DNA of 64,000 nt from Candidatus Latescibacterota bacterium (GTDB taxonomy: Bacteria; Krumholzibacteriota; Krumholzibacteriia; WVZY01; JAKEHA01), in the NCBI GenBank assembly GCA_963707635.1, contig OY970173.1:1184001-1248000 (forward strand), in the 5' to 3' direction. The position numbers and the translations under genes are program-made. Below the pieces are notes generated by a model, which worked only from the letters and a program-made list of their open reading frames with translations, was not told the origin of the DNA and searched no databases. Positions within the stretch are counted from its first letter, which is position 1. Each line of letters starts with the position of its first letter. Below are positions 860-10,001 of the stretch, in pieces.

Positions 860-1717
860 ATGGCGGAACCGGTGGCGCTCAAGGCCAAAGACTACAAGAA
901 CGACGTCGAACCCATCTGGTGCCCGGGCTGCGGGGACTACGGCGACCTGGCCGCGTTCACGCAGGCGCTGGCCGCGCTCCAGTTCGAGCCCAAGGACATC
1001 TGCATCGTCTCGGGCATCGGGTGCTCGGGACGATTCTCACACTTCATCAAGAGCTTCGCGTATCACACGGCGCACGGGCGCGCGTTGCCGACGGCGATCG
1101 GCGTCAAGGCGGCGAACCCCAACCTCCACGTATTCGTGGTGGGCGGAGACGGCGACGGCCTCTCGATCGGCGGGGGACACCTCCCGCACGCCGCGCGGCG
1201 CAACCCGGACCTCACGTACATGATTCTGGACAACGCGGTCTACGGGCTCACGAAGGGCCAGACGTCGCCGACGTCGCCGTTCGGGATGGTCACCGGCACG
1301 ACCCCGTTCGGTCTGGAGGACCCGCCGCTCGACCCGCTGCGGATGTTCCTCTCGTACGGGATCAGTTTCGTGGCGCGCGGGTTCTCGTCGGATGTGAAGG
1401 GAACCGCGCGAATGGTGCAGGCGGCGGTGGATCACAAGGGATTCTCGCTCGTGCAGCTGATCTCGCCGTGTCCCACGTTCAACCAGATCATCACCTTCGA
1501 CTTCATGAAGGAGCGCGTCGTCCCGATCCCCGAGACCCACGATCCCACCGACCTGGACGCGGCGTTTCGCCTCGCGCTCGACAAGGAGCACTTCTACACC
1601 GGGGTTTTCTACCGCAACCCGGGGTTGGCGACGATGGAGCAGAAGCTCGACCACCAGCGCAAGCTCACGATGGACAAGCAGGCGCGGACGCTGGAGACGC
1701 TCTTCGCCCAGTTCTAG
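860..1717 (+). CDS. korB: 2-oxoacid:ferredoxin oxidoreductase beta subunit (TPP-binding)
   Basis: WCPGCGD, SGIGCS, HGRALP, GGDGD...DN and YGLTKGQTSPT motifs; AGGAG RBS. Confidence 0.95.
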   Translation: MAEPVALKAKDYKNDVEPIWCPGCGDYGDLAAFTQALAALQFEPKDICIVSGIGCSGRFSHFIKSFAYHTAHGRALPTAIGVKAANPNLHVFVVGGDGDGLSIGGGHLPHAARRNPDLTYMILDNAVYGLTKGQTSPTSPFGMVTGTTPFGLEDPPLDPLRMFLSYGISFVARGFSSDVKGTARMVQAAVDHKGFSLVQLISPCPTFNQIITFDFMKERVVPIPETHDPTDLDAAFRLALDKEHFYTGVFYRNPGLATMEQKLDHQRKLTMDKQARTLETLFAQF

Positions 1718-1833
1718 GCGGACGCGGGCGACTGCGGCCGGGGCACGTTTGCTTAACGCTGTGTGGCATATAGGAATACCACCGGGTGTCGAGTACCCAT
1801 CCAATCTAACCTGCCGCTTGGAAAAACCGCTCA

Positions 1834-1863
1834 TTGACTAAGCGATGCGACATGGAGTACACT
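1834..1863 (+). promoter_or_regulatory. putative sigma70 promoter for the first secreted-protein pair
   Basis: TTGACT-18 bp-TACACT; a matching promoter sits the same distance upstream of the duplicated pair. Confidence 0.6.
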
Positions 1864-2146
1864 CTCCGTGTCATCGAAATTCCGCGTCCGACGTGTGCGA
1901 GTACCCGATGCGATCGGGCAGTTGGGGTGCACCTGAGACGTCTGTCTCAATTGTATAGCGGCAAAAGGCGAGCCGCAGCAGGGCAGATTCGACACGTAAG
2001 GCTGAACAACAGTCTCTCTGGCGCGCGAGTTCCCCCGCCATAAGTCCGGGCTTCATACGGGCTCTTCTCACCAGCGAGACTTCATGTACCGCGCTCGCGT
2101 TCGCGCGTGTGACATGTCCATTGACGAGACTATAAGGAGGAGGAGT

Positions 2147-2862
2147 ATGAAGGCTGTGATCTTGGTTCTTCTCTCCGTTTTGATCGCGGTTCCCGCGTTC
2201 GCGGGCGCACCGGTGAACGGCACCTACAAGTCCACCGACATCGGTGGTCTGATGCTGCCGGGCCGCTACAGCGAGTTGTGGTTCGGAGGCAAATTGGTGG
2301 TCAACAACACGCTCAACGAACAGTCGTGGGACGGCTCGACCCTCGGGCGCGCAGTGGCACTGGTACTGTCCGTGGATCTCCGTCCCACCGGTCTTGCTGG
2401 TCAGCACCGTGAACGTGCGCCGGCAACGGCCAGAAGATCTGGAAAGTGACCTACGTCGGAGGCTATTGCTGGCTGAACGGTCCGGGTGCGCCCTGGGACG
2501 GCGGCGACGCCGCGTACACGGCCACTATCAACACCTGGAATGCGACTGTGACCGAGACGTACTCGGGCTTCGTCGAGGTAGGAACGGTCCGCAACCATAC
2601 CGCGAGCGCCACCTTCGTGGGCTACAACACCAAGTGCATGAACCTCGCCGTGTCGAACATCGAGAAGCAGGGCGATACCAACGGCGGCCCGCTGCCGTCG
2701 AATTACCCCGACTTCTGGAATTGGATCGGCTGCAGCGACGTCGGCACCGCCGGACCCGGCGAGTGGGGCGACATCGACAGCATCACGTTCACGATCAAGG
2801 GTTGCGAGACCGTGAGCACCGAATCGACTTCTTGGGGCGCCGTCAAGGCGCTGTATCGCTAG
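2147..2862 (+). CDS. secreted protein type A with C-terminal SWGAVKALYR tail (two +1 frameshifts, ~2346 and ~2416)
   Basis: AGGAGG RBS and signal peptide MKAVILVLL...AFA; removing two bases gives an ORF colinear with paralogue 4101-4814. Confidence 0.85.
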
Positions 2863-2928
2863 CAAGCATTCAACGCAGGCCGCGCGGGTGGTTCGATCCA
2901 TTCGAGCGACCGTAAGGAGGACGAAAGC

Positions 2929-3615
2929 ATGAGGAATGTGATCTTGGTTTCCATTCTGGCGGTGGTGCTTGCGATGGGTGCCGTGGCCGCGTTTGCCGCC
3001 CCGCCCGTCAACGGGACCTGGAAGTCGTCGGACGGCTGGTTCGACGAAGGGCGTGAGGCATCGTCGTGGCCCGGCGCGAACGGGTTCCTGTCGCCCGGCA
3101 ACGTGTTGCACGCCGAGTCCTGGGACGGTTCGGCCCTGGGCGGCGATTGGAAGATCCTGTGTCCGGTCGTTCAGGACACGCTTCTGATCTTCAGCACGGT
3201 GTCGGCGGGTACCGGGCACATGAGCTACCTGCTCACCTACAAGGGCGGAACGATCGAGCTCGGCGCCGGTCCGTGGGGCGGTCCCTTCACCGGTGTGATC
3301 GACACGTACTACGAGACGCGGTCAATTCAGTTCGTCGACGGAGTGATGGTCGGCTCGGTCAGCGACCATTCCGTCGATGCGCACATCGTCGGTTATCCGG
3401 CCAGCTGCGTGGCGTTCGGTATCGGGAACGGCGTGTGGCTCGGGAGCGGCGCATTGCCCGCGGGTTACCCGGACTACCGGGACGCCAGTTGCGTGGCCGG
3501 ACCGGCCAACGGTCACTATGGTGAGTTCCGTGACCTGACTCTGTCGGTTCAGGGGTGCGAAGTCTCCACGGAACGGTCGAGCTGGGGCGCGGTAAAGGCG
3601 CTGTACAAGAACTAG
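2929..3615 (+). CDS. secreted protein type B with C-terminal SWGAVKALYKN tail
   Basis: AAGGAGG RBS, signal peptide, paralogous to 4938-5631. Confidence 0.9.
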   Translation: MRNVILVSILAVVLAMGAVAAFAAPPVNGTWKSSDGWFDEGREASSWPGANGFLSPGNVLHAESWDGSALGGDWKILCPVVQDTLLIFSTVSAGTGHMSYLLTYKGGTIELGAGPWGGPFTGVIDTYYETRSIQFVDGVMVGSVSDHSVDAHIVGYPASCVAFGIGNGVWLGSGALPAGYPDYRDASCVAGPANGHYGEFRDLTLSVQGCEVSTERSSWGAVKALYKN

Positions 3616-3653
3616 ATTCGCGGCGCCCGCGGCCGTCAGAGTTGTTTGGAATG

Positions 3654-3697
3654 GGATCCTCAGCCCCCTTCGCGGGGGCGAGGGTCCTGTTTCGTTT
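3654..3697 (+). terminator. Rho-independent terminator after pair A-B
   Basis: GGATCCTC-A-GCCCCC/TTCGC/GGGGGC-GAGGGTCC stem followed by TGTTTCGTTT. Confidence 0.65.
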
Positions 3698-3783
3698 GTG
3701 GCGTTTTGGGTCACCGCTCGACTCCAAGATGCGGGCCGTGCACCAGTTTTTTGCTCCTGCCGCCGTTTCCCACCAGCTGTAGA

Positions 3784-3812
3784 TTGATTTTCCGCCCGCT
3801 TCGGGATACAAT
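3784..3812 (+). promoter_or_regulatory. putative sigma70 promoter for the second secreted-protein pair
   Basis: TTGATT-17 bp-TACAAT. Confidence 0.65.
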
Positions 3813-4100
3813 ACCGTGCAATTGACACATTCGAGACGTCTCGCTCGCGCGAATTCCCCGGCGCAGTGAGGCGCAGACAGGGGGTGCACCGAGCGCACCT
3901 GGCCGCGAATGACGCGGCGAAGGGCGAGCCGCAGTTGGTTGTGCCTGACTGGGCAACGTGTCTATCTGGTCCAAGTTCCCACTGGCTTGTTTTTCCATTT
4001 TCCACCGGGCGCTTTCTCACCAGCCGGGCGACGAGCCGACGCGGTCCTATTGAACGGTGCACAAGGGCATTTGCGCACGATCGTGCAAGGAGGAAGCGTT

Positions 4101-4814
4101 ATGAAGTCTTTGATCTTGATTCTCATCTGCATCGCGATGGCGGTTCCCGCGCTGGCCGGACCGCCGGTGGATGGGACCTACAAATCCACCGACATCGGCG
4201 GGTCGATGCTGCCCGGCCGCTACAGCGAGCTGTGGTTCGGCGGCAAGCTGATGGTCAACAACACCCTCAACGAGCAGTCGTGGGACGGCTCGACCCTCGG
4301 AACCCAGTGGCACTGGTACTGCCCGTGGATCTCCGTCCCGCCGGTCCTGCTGGTCAACACGGTGAACGGCGCCGGTAACGGCCAGAAGACGTGGCGCGTC
4401 ACCTACACGGGCGGCTACTGCTGGCTCGACGGCGGGGGTCCGTGGGCCGGCGGCGACGTCACGTACGTGGCGGACATCACCGTCTGGATCGCGATCGTGA
4501 CCGAGACGTACTCGAACTTCGTCGAAGTGGGCACGGTTCGTAACCACAATGCCCAGGCACAGTTCACGGACTACGACAAGAAGTGCATGGACCTCTCGAT
4601 CAGCAACGTGGAGAAGCGCGGCGATACCGACGGCGGACCGCTGCCGGCGAACTACCCGGACTTCTGGAGCTGGTTCGGGTGCAGCGACGTCGGCACGGCG
4701 GGACCCGGCGAGTGGGGCGACGTCGACAGCATCACGTTTACCATCCGCGGTTGCGGCGGCGTCAGCACGGAAACAATGACCTGGGGCGCAGTCAAGGCGC
4801 TCTACCGCGACTAG
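4101..4814 (+). CDS. secreted protein type A' with C-terminal TWGAVKALYRD tail
   Basis: AAGGAGG RBS, ATG at 4101 (MKSLILILICIAMAVPALA signal peptide); long identical stretches with 2147-2862. Confidence 0.9.
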   Translation: MKSLILILICIAMAVPALAGPPVDGTYKSTDIGGSMLPGRYSELWFGGKLMVNNTLNEQSWDGSTLGTQWHWYCPWISVPPVLLVNTVNGAGNGQKTWRVTYTGGYCWLDGGGPWAGGDVTYVADITVWIAIVTETYSNFVEVGTVRNHNAQAQFTDYDKKCMDLSISNVEKRGDTDGGPLPANYPDFWSWFGCSDVGTAGPGEWGDVDSITFTIRGCGGVSTETMTWGAVKALYRD

Positions 4815-4937
4815 TCCAGAGACGTTTTGCCTCCGGGACACGCAACCGTTGTCCGGGCATCCGAGAGTCGTTCCTGGAGTGGTCGGGTGGAACTGGCGCC
4901 GATGCCGGCGCCTGTATGAACCAGGGAGGGTAAGGGC

Positions 4938-5631
4938 ATGAGGAATTCGAAATTGGTGCTGATAATGCTCGTCGTTCTGGCGGCCACGGCGACGGCCGCG
5001 CTGGCGGGCGCGCCGATCGACGGCGTCTACAAGTCGTCGAACGGTGATTTCAATGAGGGTCGCGAGGGATCGTGGTGGGGCGGCGGGAGACTTCCTCGAT
5101 CTAGGCAACGTGCTACACGCGGAATCGTGGGATGGATCGACACTCGGGACCGACTGGAAGATCCTGTGTCCAGAGGTCGTCAGGGTCACGTTGATCGTCG
5201 ACTTGACGTTCGGCGGAACCGGCCAGAAGATCTACCAGTTGGACTACAGGGGCGGCTATCTCGAGTTGAGTGGCGGCGGCCCGTGGGGCAATGGCGATGC
5301 CGTGTATACCAACGTGATCGACACCTACTACGAGTTTCGAACGATTCAGTACGAAGCCGGAGTCAAGATCGGTTCGGTGAGCGACCATTCGGTGACCGCG
5401 CACTCAACTTTTACGGAGAAGTGCTTTACCTGGGGTATCGGCAACGGGGTCTGGCTCGGCGAGAGCGGTCCTGCGCCGAGCGGTTACCCGGAGTACGAGA
5501 TCGGAGCTGCCATGGGGGCTCTGAAGGCCGGTCACTGGGGCGATATTCGGGACCTGACGCTCACGATCGAAGGCTGCACTGTCTCGACCGAGCAATCCAG
5601 TTGGGGCGCCGTTAAGGCCATCTATCGGTAA
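4938..5631 (+). CDS. secreted protein type B' with C-terminal SWGAVKAIYR tail (+1 frameshift ~5086)
   Basis: ORFs 4938 and 5044 join into a full paralogue of 2929-3615 if one G is removed from GGG at 5085-5087. Confidence 0.85.
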
Positions 5632-5648
5632 CGGGCGGTAGCGGCCGC

Positions 5649-5906
5649 CTAGCCGAAGTGACGAAAGATCCGCTCGCCCACCCGAACGGTCCACGCCTCG
5701 GGTAGCCGGCGGAAGGCGGCGGTGAACAGGCGGTACTTGAGCGAATCGCTTTTCACCACGCTCAAGCCTTCGCCGGGCGGATCGAAGTAGTAGGGAAGTT
5801 CCAGGCGGCTGGTTCCCCACCGCCCCTTGAACTCGTTCAATCCGGGGTTGTCGGCGGCCGTGCGGCCGAAATCGTACGCACGGTCGCCGGCGGCAACGGC
5901 GTCCTC
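5649..5906 (-). pseudogene. C-terminal remnant (85 aa) of a FemAB-like GNAT acyltransferase
   Basis: EDAVAAGDRAYDFGRTAADNPGLNEFKGRWG...; the frame has a stop at 5924-5922, so the 5' part is missing here. Confidence 0.75.
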
Positions 5907-5907
5907 G

Positions 5908-6609
5908 TTACTCCATATCCTCTACGTAGAACAAGTCACCCCCCACCTCTCTGCATGAGTTCTGCCTTCCGGTGCCCATCAGGGCCAACAGAGAGTGGGG
6001 ATATGGGAAGAAGTGGAGATGGAGATCGAAAGTGTGCTTGTAGGGTCTCTGCTTGGGGACGACAATAATCAGTCGCCGCCTGGTTACCCTTCGGAGCTCT
6101 TGAATACCCTGAAAGACATTCTGGATGTGCTCCAACGTATGCGTAGCGACGACCGTATCGAAGCAATCGTCTTCAAACGGCAGACGCTCCATGTTTGCTT
6201 CCCGCCAGTCAATCTCGGGGTGTTGATTCCTCAGCTGAGGATCGATCATGATGTCAACCGCGGTTACTCGCGACTGCTTGCTCATCTTCTTGGCGAGAAG
6301 TCCTCTACCGCTGCCGACCTCCAGTACCGTTTGCCCAACGAGATTTCTCAGAATCTCCTCGACGCATTGTGTATTCAGGTCAGTCTCTCTCTCGATGAGA
6401 ACTGGCTGGACCCGCTCGTAAACACCAAGAAACTCCTGCTCTGTCATTGCCATCGCCGTCTGTTTGAATCCGAGGAATGTCGGTGTCGTGGCTCCGAACA
6501 GAACCTTGAAGGGCGGAATGATAAACCACTTTGCATCCCGAATGATTGGTGGGATACAATTGTCCAGTAGAAAATGGATCTTTAGGGAGAGATTTCTGCT
6601 CAATTTCAT
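5908..6609 (-). CDS. class I SAM-dependent methyltransferase
   Basis: VLEVGSGRG, NMERLPFEDDCFD and HTLEHI motifs. Confidence 0.9.
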   Translation of the reverse strand: MKLSRNLSLKIHFLLDNCIPPIIRDAKWFIIPPFKVLFGATTPTFLGFKQTAMAMTEQEFLGVYERVQPVLIERETDLNTQCVEEILRNLVGQTVLEVGSGRGLLAKKMSKQSRVTAVDIMIDPQLRNQHPEIDWREANMERLPFEDDCFDTVVATHTLEHIQNVFQGIQELRRVTRRRLIIVVPKQRPYKHTFDLHLHFFPYPHSLLALMGTGRQNSCREVGGDLFYVEDME

Positions 6610-6672
6610 GGCGCTATCCTATCATCTCGAGTCTGTCGTTTCTAGGGTCACCGTGGAACTGACGAGCTTTCT

Positions 6673-7653
6673 ATGCGCAGGCTGACGATAGTCGGTTCGG
6701 TCTACAACGAAGCCGATGTGCTTCCGATGTTTTTTTCGGAGTTGACCGAACAGCTCCGTCGGATGGACGTCCAGTACGAGATCATTCTGGTCAACGACGG
6801 GAGCACAGATGAAAGCAAGGACCGCCTGGCCGAGTTTGCGGCACAACACCGCGCGGTCAAGGTGGTCTGTTTTTCCCGAAATTTCGGTCACGAGGCGGCA
6901 ATGACCGCCGGTATCGACCACGCCACGGGTGATGCTATCGTCTGCATGGATACGGATCTCCAACATCCGCCGGCTGAGATACCGAGGATGCTCGAAGCCT
7001 GCGCTTCCGGTTCCGAGATCGTGTACATGAAGCGGTTAAAGCGCGAGGACGCAAGCTTCATTCGCCGCGTAACGTCCAGATTGTTCTACCAGGCGCTCAA
7101 TCGGATATCAAAGATCAGGATCGAGCCCGACGTATCGGATTTCTTCCTGATTTCGAGCCGGGTCGCCGGGATCTTGCGCACCAGTTACAAGGAGCGCACG
7201 CGCTTCCTGCGCGGAATCATCCAGCAAGTGGGCTTTCCGACCAGCGTGCTTGAATACACCGCCCCGAGCCGGGCGGCCGGCCACACGAAATATTCTTTCT
7301 GGCGTCTATTGCTTTTTTCTGCGGTTGCGATCGCATCGGTGTCGCAAGCACCGCTGAGGTTCAGTATGTTGGCGGCGTTGGGGTTCATGCTCATCAGCCT
7401 TGCTTTGGGAATATACTCGATCATCATGAAGCTTCTCGGGTCGCCGTTTTCGGGGTACACGACACTTGTTGTGCTCACGAGCTTCGGATTCAGCGTCGTA
7501 CTCCTGATGCTGGGAATTGTCGGCGAGTATCTCGGTAGTGTCTTTGTCGAAAGTAAGCAGCGGCCCGTTTACATCGTAGCGGAGATCATCGACTCCGAGA
7601 CGCTGACGGACTCCGCGCGGATGGTCGTCAAAGGAACCGGCCCAAGACCTTGA
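6673..7653 (+). CDS. GT2 polyprenol-phosphate glycosyltransferase (GtrB/ArnC-like)
   Basis: YNEA, VNDGSTD, SRNFGHEAA and DTDLQHPP motifs; two C-terminal TM helices; QRPVYIV. Confidence 0.92.
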   Translation: MRRLTIVGSVYNEADVLPMFFSELTEQLRRMDVQYEIILVNDGSTDESKDRLAEFAAQHRAVKVVCFSRNFGHEAAMTAGIDHATGDAIVCMDTDLQHPPAEIPRMLEACASGSEIVYMKRLKREDASFIRRVTSRLFYQALNRISKIRIEPDVSDFFLISSRVAGILRTSYKERTRFLRGIIQQVGFPTSVLEYTAPSRAAGHTKYSFWRLLLFSAVAIASVSQAPLRFSMLAALGFMLISLALGIYSIIMKLLGSPFSGYTTLVVLTSFGFSVVLLMLGIVGEYLGSVFVESKQRPVYIVAEIIDSETLTDSARMVVKGTGPRP

Positions 7654-8984
7654 ATGTACTCTCGCTCCTGATTTCCAGTGACCGCCGGGCCATGACGGCG
7701 CTTGCGTCGACGGCGGTTCTGGTCCGACTGCTGTTCGCGTGGGGTGTCGCACCCATTCTGGCACGGCACGGGATCGAAGCGGACGCCTGGCCGGATTCGT
7801 ACTGCCTCTTTTCGGAAAACCTAATCAACGGCCACGGTTTTGCGGTGCAGCCCGGCACCGCGTCGGTGATGCGCGGACCGGTTCAGCCGCTGTTCGGGGC
7901 ACTGATCTTTCTGATCTTTGGCATCCGTAATCTCGTCGGTGTTCAGCTCTTCCATGCGCTGCTGGACAGCGTGACGACGATACTCGTGTTTGCGATCGGG
8001 AAACAGGTCTTTGGCCGGATGGCGGGTTTCACCGCTGCGGTGATGTTCACGTTCTATCCGTTGTCCATTTGGTATAGCGGGAGCATGAGCATGGTGCCGT
8101 TGTTGACTGCGTTGTATTGCCTGTTGTGCTGGGTGGTCCTGCGCAGTGCGGAGGACCCCAGCGCGGCGCGCAGCGTCAGCGTTGGTGTGGCACTTGGCGT
8201 CATAACGCTCACGCTCCCCATAACCCTGCTGTTCCCGCCCATTCTTCTTGCCCTGTGGCTCCTGATGCGGCTGCCCCGGCGCCGCGCCTTGGCACACTGG
8301 ATCATTGTTTGCATCGTCATGGCGGTTGTTGTCGGCCCCTGGACAATTCGCAACTATAGAGTAACGGGCCGGTTCATTCCGGTGTCTGCAGGCGGCGGCT
8401 ATGCATTTCTCTTCGGCGACCTGTTCGCCGAACGGTTCGATGGCTTCTCGCCCTACTCGGACGAGTATCCAGATGAACATGCGCTTCAGCACGTGGAGAA
8501 CGAGCGTGTTGCGGCGCTCCTTCCCCCCGATCTTGCCGCGCGATTCTGGTACCTGGACATGGGGCCCGAGATAACGGGAATCCTCGATCGTCAAGCGGCA
8601 CAGTCCATACTGAAAAGACCGTTCAGGTTCGTCAAGAAGGTGGCAATTCAGACCGTTACATTCTGGTATCTGGGTAACAACCGTATGAAGACGTTCGCCA
8701 TACTGGCGGTTCAGATGGTTTGCGTGGTCCCTTGGTTCCTGGTGGGCTTGTTTCTGAGCTGGAAGCGCCGAATCGCGCCAGCCCTGCCGTTGCTGCTACT
8801 CATCGTCTATCTCAACCTCACGTACGCCGCCACAATAGCGAATGCGCGTCATGGCATGCCGGCTATGCCAATCGCGATTGTCTTTGGCGGGTTCGCACTC
8901 TGCGAACTCTTGCGACGCCGGGTATCCGATCATCCGGCCACCACCAGGCGATCAAATACGCGCACACCGCCGCGGCTGGCCTAG
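7650..8984 (+). CDS. GT-C fold membrane glycosyltransferase (ArnT/PMT-like)
   Basis: multiple TM helices, DSY acidic loop and PWTIRNY motif; TTG start overlaps the GT2 stop (ATG 7692 is an alternative start). Confidence 0.8.
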   Translation: MNVLSLLISSDRRAMTALASTAVLVRLLFAWGVAPILARHGIEADAWPDSYCLFSENLINGHGFAVQPGTASVMRGPVQPLFGALIFLIFGIRNLVGVQLFHALLDSVTTILVFAIGKQVFGRMAGFTAAVMFTFYPLSIWYSGSMSMVPLLTALYCLLCWVVLRSAEDPSAARSVSVGVALGVITLTLPITLLFPPILLALWLLMRLPRRRALAHWIIVCIVMAVVVGPWTIRNYRVTGRFIPVSAGGGYAFLFGDLFAERFDGFSPYSDEYPDEHALQHVENERVAALLPPDLAARFWYLDMGPEITGILDRQAAQSILKRPFRFVKKVAIQTVTFWYLGNNRMKTFAILAVQMVCVVPWFLVGLFLSWKRRIAPALPLLLLIVYLNLTYAATIANARHGMPAMPIAIVFGGFALCELLRRRVSDHPATTRRSNTRTPPRLA

Positions 8985-10001
8985 CTAGAACAGGAGGCGA
9001 CGCAGCGCGGCGTATGCCATCTGGCCCACATACAACCTCGCCGGAGAATAGACTCTCACAAACCGGCCAAAATTGACCAGCTGACCCTGAAACCGGCTCT
9101 TGAATTCCCGAACTCCATACTCGACGTTGGGATCACCCGCCCCACCGAAATCAAATATCTCGTGCCCACCTCTGCATCCCCAGCGGACCATGTCCCAGAC
9201 GAGAAGGGCGTTTGCATTCAGTTTGTCACCTTCCGCACTGCTGCCGGCAAACCAGTCGAAGACGCGCCCGTGGTACACGAGGGCTGCACGGCTGGCAATC
9301 ACGCTGCCATTGTGTCGAGCGAGTGTAATGCGCAGTCGGCCGAGCGGTGCCAGCCGGAGCCATGCCTCTTGAAAGATCTCCTTCGGGAAAAACGGCAAAT
9401 GCGCCCTTGAGTAGATCCGTGATACCAATTCGTGAAAAATATCGATCTGCGTGGGTTCCGACACTTCTGTGATCTCGATGCCGGTCTTCTCGGCACGTTT
9501 GAGCATGCGGCGTTGATCTCCGGAGAAGTCTTCCCAGATGCCGTTCTCGTCCTTTCTCAAATCAACGAGATAGTTCAGGTGCGGTACGAATTTGTACCCG
9601 CTGCGCGTCAACGGAATGATTCGTGATGTCTGGTCGGTCATGTTCCGTATTTCTGTGAAGAGCGCCTGCGTCTTCATAGTGTCGTCGTATGCACTAACCA
9701 GCGTCCCGATATGCTTGTTAAGGTAGCGCTCGGTTACATCGTGTGCGCAGGAAATGCCACCGAAAACGACAGAACGCGATGTGAACCTCGGCAATGACGC
9801 GAAGATCCTTGTCTGCACCGCAACAATACATGCGATTGGCCTGCCGTCTTCCTGAAGGAAGAACACGTGAGGCGTGTACTTGGGAGACCCGGCGAAACAA
9901 TCGACAAATTGCCGCGTGTGAAAGATGTTAGCCGAGGGATTGCTATCCGTGTAGTGATCCCATGCGTCGTGGGGAACCGAGCGAACGACTTCGATGGGCA
10001 T
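8985..10001 (-). CDS. FemAB-like GNAT acyltransferase / peptidoglycan-bridge-like family
   Basis: WDHY...PSANIFHT N-terminus; NALLVW...FDFGGAG...GVREFKSRFQG C-terminus. Confidence 0.85.
   Translation of the reverse strand: MPIEVVRSVPHDAWDHYTDSNPSANIFHTRQFVDCFAGSPKYTPHVFFLQEDGRPIACIVAVQTRIFASLPRFTSRSVVFGGISCAHDVTERYLNKHIGTLVSAYDDTMKTQALFTEIRNMTDQTSRIIPLTRSGYKFVPHLNYLVDLRKDENGIWEDFSGDQRRMLKRAEKTGIEITEVSEPTQIDIFHELVSRIYSRAHLPFFPKEIFQEAWLRLAPLGRLRITLARHNGSVIASRAALVYHGRVFDWFAGSSAEGDKLNANALLVWDMVRWGCRGGHEIFDFGGAGDPNVEYGVREFKSRFQGQLVNFGRFVRVYSPARLYVGQMAYAALRRLLF

Follow-up and report, generated by a model that had tools for sequence, protein, structure and literature searches.

We analysed a window of 64,000 nucleotides from Candidatus Latescibacterota bacterium (contig OY970173.1, positions 1,184,001 to 1,248,000 of the forward strand), in which two units lie 3' of korAB-type genes, each made up of a promoter, a leader and two paralogous genes, here called A and B. 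The two leaders represent a real, apparently undescribed family of structured leader RNA, and not the relic of a duplication. Each would precede, as the 5' leader, an operon of two genes whose products are predicted to be secreted, and it is kept across one genus of the Krumholzibacteriia. The source genome is a single contig of 3.2 Mb with 66% G+C and is 96% complete, and all features of the two units given below by window position are on the plus strand.

The initial annotation of this DNA had proposed a sigma70-like promoter in front of each gene pair and six ordered blocks shared by the two leaders, and every one of these elements was found where it had been placed. Promoter 1 (1834..1863) has the -35 hexamer TTGACT at 1834-1839, an 18-nt spacer and the -10 hexamer TACACT at 1858-1863, with an A-tract just 5' of it; promoter 2 (3784..3812) has TTGATT at 3784-3789, a 17-nt spacer and TACAAT at 3807-3812. 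The distances to the ATG are 313 nt and 317 nt respectively, and there is no other promoter-like site in 1700-5900, where shuffled sequences yield 0.9 +/- 0.8. Leader copy 1 (1869..2146) would begin at a predicted +1 near 1869-1870 and leader copy 2 (3818..4100) at 3818. Copy 2 is of the main structural type and copy 1 of a variant type without helix P2 and with a weak P3, the window thus holding one leader of each subtype. Model R1 matches them at 1922-2092 (109.7 bits) and 3879-4042 (99.5 bits), both being training sequences of that model.

The blocks are, in order and with the copy 1 position first, block 1 GGGGTGCACC at 1924 (1924..1933) and 3881 (3881-3890), in which GTGCA and the last C are invariant; block 2 GCGGC-RAARGGCGA-GCCGC-AG at 1958-1978 and 3914-3934; block 3 GTCTMTCTGG at 2012 and 3960; block 4 AGTTCCC at 2028 and 3974; block 5 CGGGC at 2058 and 4006, a 5-mer also found at 1915, 2047 and 4025; and block 6 TTCTCACCAGC at 2065 and 4014. 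Nowhere else in the genome is there a match to the 19-nt hairpin pattern, even when one mismatch is allowed. Block 1 has 9 further genome sites, each without the other blocks, and a genome scan with model R1 returned two strong matches plus two at E 0.1 and 0.8. The initial annotation could not match the leaders to a riboswitch consensus, and comparison with the Rfam 15 covariance models agrees with this: the window had no match at the gathering score, its leaders had none at E<=10, and the 10 sub-threshold matches among 13 homologous loci included none credible for the motif.

Searching with a three-block pattern gave 188 matches, 87 in species genomes and 101 in metagenomes, which a sequence profile split into 26 above 80 bits and 162 at <=18 bits; the latter were set aside as chance. 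The pattern also matched 35 times in viral contigs, always at <=11.8 bits. Removal of 4 duplicates from 30 loci left 26 distinct leaders from Krumholzibacteriia or Latescibacterota-labelled relatives, and gene A lies directly downstream, in sense, of all 26 true matches. With a permissive promoter pattern for these homologous loci, a promoter was called 281-320 nt 5' of the ATG in 26 of the 30, the remaining 4 being truncated at contig ends. TTGAC is present in 21 of the 26 promoters, and the spacer letters are unrelated between genomes.

Close orthologues of gene A are found in 12 of the 16 other genomes of the genus and in one genome of the next genus, and a covariance model of the leader gave a strong match in the same 12 of 16, with three additional weak matches (E 0.008-0.09). 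The model had no match in 19 other genomes of the order, and none in a phylum sample of 139 genomes outside the genus, a search made with stricter filters on genomes of which many are incomplete. Relatives of gene A, in turn, are present in 120 of the 201 phylum genomes searched. L013 and L031, two leaders excluded when the sequence profile was built, reached z 5.3 and 6.6. In the next genus (G011, locus L014) the leader scored z 1.8 against shuffles and had no model match, and six more distant homologues together with a second gene A copy in G172 gave z -1.7 to 2.2. By these searches the leader family appears to be narrow, confined to one genus and one gene. On the minus strand of the next genus's locus (L014:2209-2482) we observed the same promoter distance (280 nt), block-like words in the same order by eye and a P5-like helix.

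The constraint on the blocks was measured on the columns common to both window copies, in the 20 leaders outside the window's two lineages. In these, shared columns within the blocks are kept in 954 of 1126 cells (85%) and shared columns outside the blocks in 254 of 508 (50%). Five of the six blocks hold outside the window's lineages, and it had been stated that failure of homologous leaders to keep the blocks would mark them as duplication relics; this was not what we found. Block 6 is kept in only 91 of 167 cells (54%) and is lineage-specific, so that its listing as a conserved block cannot be upheld. Across 185 gene pairs with <80% amino-acid identity, the blocks, which were picked on the same alignment, are 87% identical, compared with 50% for fourfold-degenerate sites (36% at random) and 46% for the rest of the leader. 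The bases GUGCACC, GGC, GGCGAGCCRCA and AGUUCCC are near-invariant. In a tree, the A1 and A2 types group together (support 91/92), as do two copies in G144 (97/88), and there were therefore two separate duplications, with the motif kept in both.

The proposed fold has four parts. A 5' hairpin, P1, spans 1886..1919 in copy 1 and 3837..3873 in copy 2. It is followed by a core in which P2 pairs GGUGC with GUACC and P3 pairs UGCCG with CGGCA; in copy 2 the core domain (3881..3945) comprises block 1, P2 (3883-3887 with 3941-3945), P3 (3902-3907 with 3913-3918) and GGCGAGCCGCA at 3923-3933. The long irregular P4/P5 helix pairs AGUCUC..CUGG..AGUUCCC with GGGYRCU..CCAG..GAGAYU, covers 2011..2081 in copy 1 (2011-2034 with 2059-2081), where it contains blocks 3-6, and covers 3959..4030 in copy 2 (3959-3980 with 4007-4030). 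The last part is a variable hairpin, P7, at 2083..2116 in copy 1, without a U-tract. A further TGAGAC/GTCTCA hairpin (1934..1949) belongs to the copy 1 lineage and is seen by eye in L013 and L031. In the clade of L007 type the loops of P1 (UCCUC) and P3 (GAGGG) are complementary; by eye, the P1 loop may make a kissing or pseudoknot contact with that of P3 or with block 1 in that one clade, and this is not evident in the others.

Comparison between the leaders supports the claim that these are structured, cis-located leaders, with p-values that are optimistic in that the helices were drawn from the sequences on which they were tested. On an unfitted 26-row alignment, 87.7% of the cells of 27 core pairs are paired, compared with 34-50% for slid partners. 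Changes on both sides affect 7 core pairs and 12 cells, numbers reached by 9 and 0 of 500 shuffles respectively, and under a tree-aware null in which columns were simulated independently along the tree, 7 such pairs compare with 2.3 expected (p=0.002; covariation p=0.017), P4a alone giving p ~0.04. Counts made on a model-fitted alignment (A5) were dropped, as it was fitted to the structure and contained two probable chance matches (L245 and L248). In an alignment-free test of cognate against non-cognate arms over 8 lineages, P4 (p=0.0003) and P1 (p=0.003) passed, and control segments gave p 0.16 and 0.23. Within a 9-member clade, P1 gave p 0.006-0.026, and P7 gave p 0.001-0.009 on three measures and 0.18 on a fourth. 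Segment folding z-scores are negative for P1 in 22 of 25 leaders, for the core in 23 of 26 and for the P4/P5 region in about 24 of 26, with means of -1.2 to -1.4. A 5'-end helix, P0, looked compensatory by eye and was rejected at the lineage level (p=0.32).

The initial annotation had described a conserved GCGGC/GCCGC hairpin, which is not among the conserved helices. In copy 1 it lies at 1958..1977 (1958-1962 with 1972-1976) and holds the near-invariant GGCGAGCCRCA at 1967-1977. Compensatory pairs are absent from this hairpin, its score is equalled or exceeded by 500 of 500 shuffles, 2 of its 5 pairs are broken in four leaders (L002, L005, L009 and L216), and the rival upstream hairpin P3 is cheaper in 19 of the 26; it dominates the ensemble in window copy 1, L179 and L224. 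As a conserved helix it was ruled out by these tests of compensation, broken pairs and competition.

Contigs assembled from four RNA runs of four studies, among 23 runs listed with related strains present at shares of at most 0.17, cover the blocks together with gene A. Among the matches listed, the first contig letters fall at 1896, 1897 and 1925 for copy 1 and at 3833, 3837, 3843 and 3902 for copy 2, and each listed contig with its start in a leader runs at least 31 nt into gene A. The piece at 3833 carries 17 further letters and would extend to about 3816, near the predicted +1. None of the four runs gave contig cover in the bin 3660-3803, which contains a terminator-like hairpin 3' of gene B1 (3667..3690), and three of the four gave none in the bin 1644-1787. 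A transcription start downstream of the blocks, which would have removed them from the message, is thus not borne out; as the contigs show neither strand nor start and have no DNA control, the transcription of the blocks together with gene A is a weak hint.

Features of known control mechanisms were looked for in the leaders. A terminator-like site near the 3' end was present in 0 of the 26, with two scattered matches elsewhere, and start codons led by a ribosome site occur in 6 of the 26, none of them common, so that no upstream open reading frame is shared. Transcription attenuation is unlikely because of these two results, and a leader-peptide attenuator or T-box was rejected for want of a conserved upstream frame, a terminator or an Rfam T-box match. 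Control by CsrA/RsmA, whose targets have GGA repeats at the ribosome site, was also set aside: PF02599 was not found in this 96% complete genome, the control search finding it in 3 of 14 genomes.

At the gene start, the Shine-Dalgarno sequence AAGGAGGAGGAG, the start codon and codons 8-10 (CTT CTC TCC) lie within 2134..2176, and codons 8-10 are able to pair with the Shine-Dalgarno sequence, which is suggestive only. For 19 of 26 leaders the prediction is that this sequence pairs mainly with the coding start. Among the 26, 23 have CTT as codon 8, and CTT makes up 9-14% of leucine codons in control genes. The median cost of opening the hairpin is predicted to be 8.7 kcal/mol, compared with 5.0 for 118 signal-peptide genes and 5.2 for 14 B genes. 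The GUGCACC segment has two possible partners, GUACC in P2 or GGGYRC, the latter in competition with P5.

On the evidence above, we give an even chance to the leader being a cis-acting platform, probably bound by protein, that sets the lifetime and translation of its own mRNA. The leader may be a protein-binding array, as the initial annotation had inferred, or a ligand sensor. A sigma70 promoter would direct a single transcript from about 1869 or 3818, and its leader would fold into the P1 hairpin, the P2/P3 junction core, the long P4/P5 helix and the P7 hairpin. A tertiary core or a binding surface would be built from the near-invariant GUGCACC, GGC, GGCGAGCCRCA and AGUUCCC, because helix formation alone leaves the invariance of these bases unexplained. 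Bound by protein, the platform would then act on transcript lifetime and on ribosome access; the control point would be translation start or decay, and this may require opening the hairpin that the Shine-Dalgarno sequence is predicted to form with codons 7-10.

Several results weigh against this reading, besides the optimism of the p-values. The helices P2, P3, P4b and P5 are non-significant one by one, and P2 is not present in the lineage of window copy 1 and weak in L013 and L031. Whole window leaders are no stabler than shuffles (z 0.15 and -0.01), so that the case for structure rests on comparison, and when the full alignment was given to plain RNAalifold, none of the 11 pairs returned was compensatory. 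In G172 the leader of the second gene A copy is short and lacks the motif. The fit to a classic 5'-end shield is poor given the offset of P1 and the failure of the 5'-end helix. Opening the Shine-Dalgarno hairpin is predicted to cost 7.0 kcal/mol even after synonymous recoding, and the B genes likewise keep their first codons; because of this, a hairpin hiding the ribosome site is suggestive only. The window's own copies are ordinary in this respect (6.8 and 4.6 kcal/mol).

A new small-molecule riboswitch seems to us unlikely, with perhaps the best claim after the protein-bound platform. Here the P2/P3 junction with its invariant linkers would be the aptamer, and a ligand would shift GUGCACC between its partners and alter access to the ribosome site. 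The motif is upstream and in sense in 26 of 26 cases, the junction strands hold invariant bases, the Shine-Dalgarno sequence is predicted to be mostly paired, and the second pairing state of GUGCACC (with GGGYRC) is possible in 143 of 155 cells. However, that second state has neither compensatory change nor covariation, forcing either state leaves Shine-Dalgarno access equal (median unpaired 0.16 vs 0.18), there is no terminator, P2 is lost in one lineage, and a single gene without known function in one genus gives no hint of a ligand. If the DNA itself were the active form, the blocks would be operator boxes for transcription factors and their folding incidental. The palindromic block 1 (GGTGCACC) and the constant promoter distance would suit this, but the helices covary over 70-nt spans, the spacing between blocks differs by several bases, and GGGGTGCACC stands at 9 other genome sites without the other blocks; we regard it as quite improbable. 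That the blocks are neutral relics of tandem duplication is hardly credible: the two units do derive from duplication, but the homologue set refutes the idea, the blocks being kept in 12 other genomes, in single or separate copies, far above synonymous sites.

Two further explanations bring in another RNA, and we consider both improbable, to about the same degree. In one, the leader would be an RNA of separate function that is co-transcribed with gene A and then cut off the message; the leader has a promoter of its own and some 230 nt of structure in several domains, which would agree with this, and P7 could guard a processed 3' end. The motif is nevertheless always with gene A (26/26), its own genome has just two copies, there is no terminator, and the RNA-library contigs continue into the gene. 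In the other, the leader would be the landing site of a trans-acting small RNA that remodels it through the blocks, for example an order-wide RNA led by a sigma-54 promoter. That RNA is conserved in 32 of 36 order genomes, and when 537 start regions were ranked against its G-rich loop the copy 1 leader came 7th, but copy 2 came 114th. For the set of 26 leaders the percentile has a median of 0.32-0.72, no more than 1-6 of them fall in the top 10%, and the sites shift, leaving no conserved pairing site. Pairing with the start sites of A or B did not exceed background for any of 8 sigma-54 candidates, other small RNAs being compared by exact complements only. The sigma-54-led RNA itself is about 270 nt long (G000:C1 ~2569000-2569300, minus strand; also L284:3860-4310 and L285-L309), is near-invariant in its 5' segment and in a hairpin loop, and ends in a helix with a U-run.

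The genes behind the leaders, which the initial annotation had taken for surface-protein genes, are predicted to encode secreted proteins. The A and B proteins have signal-peptide-like starts and WGxVKxLY at the C-terminal end. Gene A1 (2147..2862) encodes a predicted secreted small beta-barrel protein with this tail, and gene B1 (2929..3615) a paralogue of A, 36% identical. Gene A2 (4101..4814) encodes 237 aa with a signal-peptide-like start, a predicted small beta-barrel and a C-terminal helix with WGAVKALY, and is followed by gene B2 (4938..5631), whose frame is broken near 5085-5100. Compared with a close relative, A1 has one extra base near 2345 and another near 2416, where its frame is broken. 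These two breaks are probably assembly errors because the RNA-library contigs have one base fewer at both places, and the break in B2 is probably an error as well.

The scanned A and B frames had no match in Pfam or NCBIfam and belong to no named Atlas family, the nearest Atlas clusters being hypothetical proteins, commonest in Krumholzibacteriota. Apart from a helix at the C terminus, the predicted model of A2 (predicted local distance difference test score, pLDDT, 86.6) is all-beta. The structure that it matches best is a DUF3224-like or dirigent-like barrel, PDB 2q03 (Z 8.9, root mean square deviation 2.8 A over 114 residues, 7% identity), with which it has a predicted antiparallel beta-barrel in common; this Z barely exceeds the common range, and the fold suggests no function. 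A Foldseek search with the same model was negative at E<=0.001. The pattern [ST]WGx[VI]KxLY closes about 38 open frames in the genome (41 pattern matches, of which 3 are artefacts), and many of these frames have signal-peptide-like starts. The tail is a helix in the A2 model and had no NCBIfam or Pfam match among four frames scanned; it resembles a tag for sorting or anchoring that would be undescribed.

Other observations concern the surroundings of the operons. A third gene of the A/B family (G000:C1 1646534-1647190) is distant (34% identical) and has a different leader in which the motif is not present. The first 7-8 codons of gene B (window 2929-2955; L002-L013) are near-identical DNA genus-wide, and the spacer between A and B often carries a similar hairpin, so a second control site is possible there. 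Right after B2, a gene fragment near 5649-5900 precedes a lower-G+C block (5908-10001) with methyltransferase, glycosyltransferase, PMT-type and GNAT/FemAB genes, which looks like an inserted surface-polysaccharide region.

With this leader, a phylum for which our searches found no paper on RNA motifs gains a structured RNA family that is not yet catalogued. Its fold can be tested, 26 variants are available from nature, and a single genome contains both structural subtypes. Were its ligand a metabolite, the leader would be a new riboswitch class, a two-domain RNA whose invariant junction senses a signal and opens the hairpin over the ribosome site, and an uncultured phylum would tune tail-tagged secreted beta-barrel proteins by direct RNA sensing. 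Were it instead bound by protein, or were its effect to stabilise the mRNA, it would be a new element in the control of a family of secreted proteins without known function that is widespread in the phylum. Its narrow range limits the general impact. Among the papers listed in literature searches, no RNA motif of this kind was found described for Krumholzibacteriota or Latescibacteria, the supplements of motif papers, which may list non-Rfam motifs, being outside the scope of that search.

Strong riboswitch candidates, according to PMC8632094, combine an in-sense upstream position, robust conservation, association with genes that hint at the ligand, a coupled expression platform and selective, protein-free ligand binding. 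On this account, the leader has the position, and it has conservation of sequence and structure, though its single core helices are non-significant. Its linked gene, without function or named family, offers no hint of a ligand, and for an expression platform there is only the suggestive Shine-Dalgarno hairpin, with no predicted coupling to the two states; the leader is at most a weak riboswitch candidate in these terms. As PMC8632094 describes them, the orphan motifs and weak candidates ilvD, potE and icd-II are similar in being rare, genus-limited and upstream of one gene, with conserved junction bases, modest covariation and an unclear expression platform. The leader is unlike them in having no Rfam 15 match, a linked gene without function and about 230 structured nt in four parts.

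Message stabilisation offers another comparison. The ompA mRNA of E. coli has a long stabilising 5' untranslated region (UTR) with a stem at its very 5' end. No such stem was found here: P1 lies about 10-19 nt past the predicted, unmapped +1, and the 5' end is predicted to be unpaired there. The leader also differs from slpA and ompA in its many invariant bases. The S-layer (slpA) mRNAs of Lactobacillus are stabilised by long structured 5' UTRs, as reported in PMC3666127, which is a precedent for the platform favoured here. What the leader shares with slpA and with ompA is architecture, no relation in sequence being expected: a promoter and a ribosome site that are both consensus-like, and a long structured 5' UTR before a protein that is predicted to be exported.

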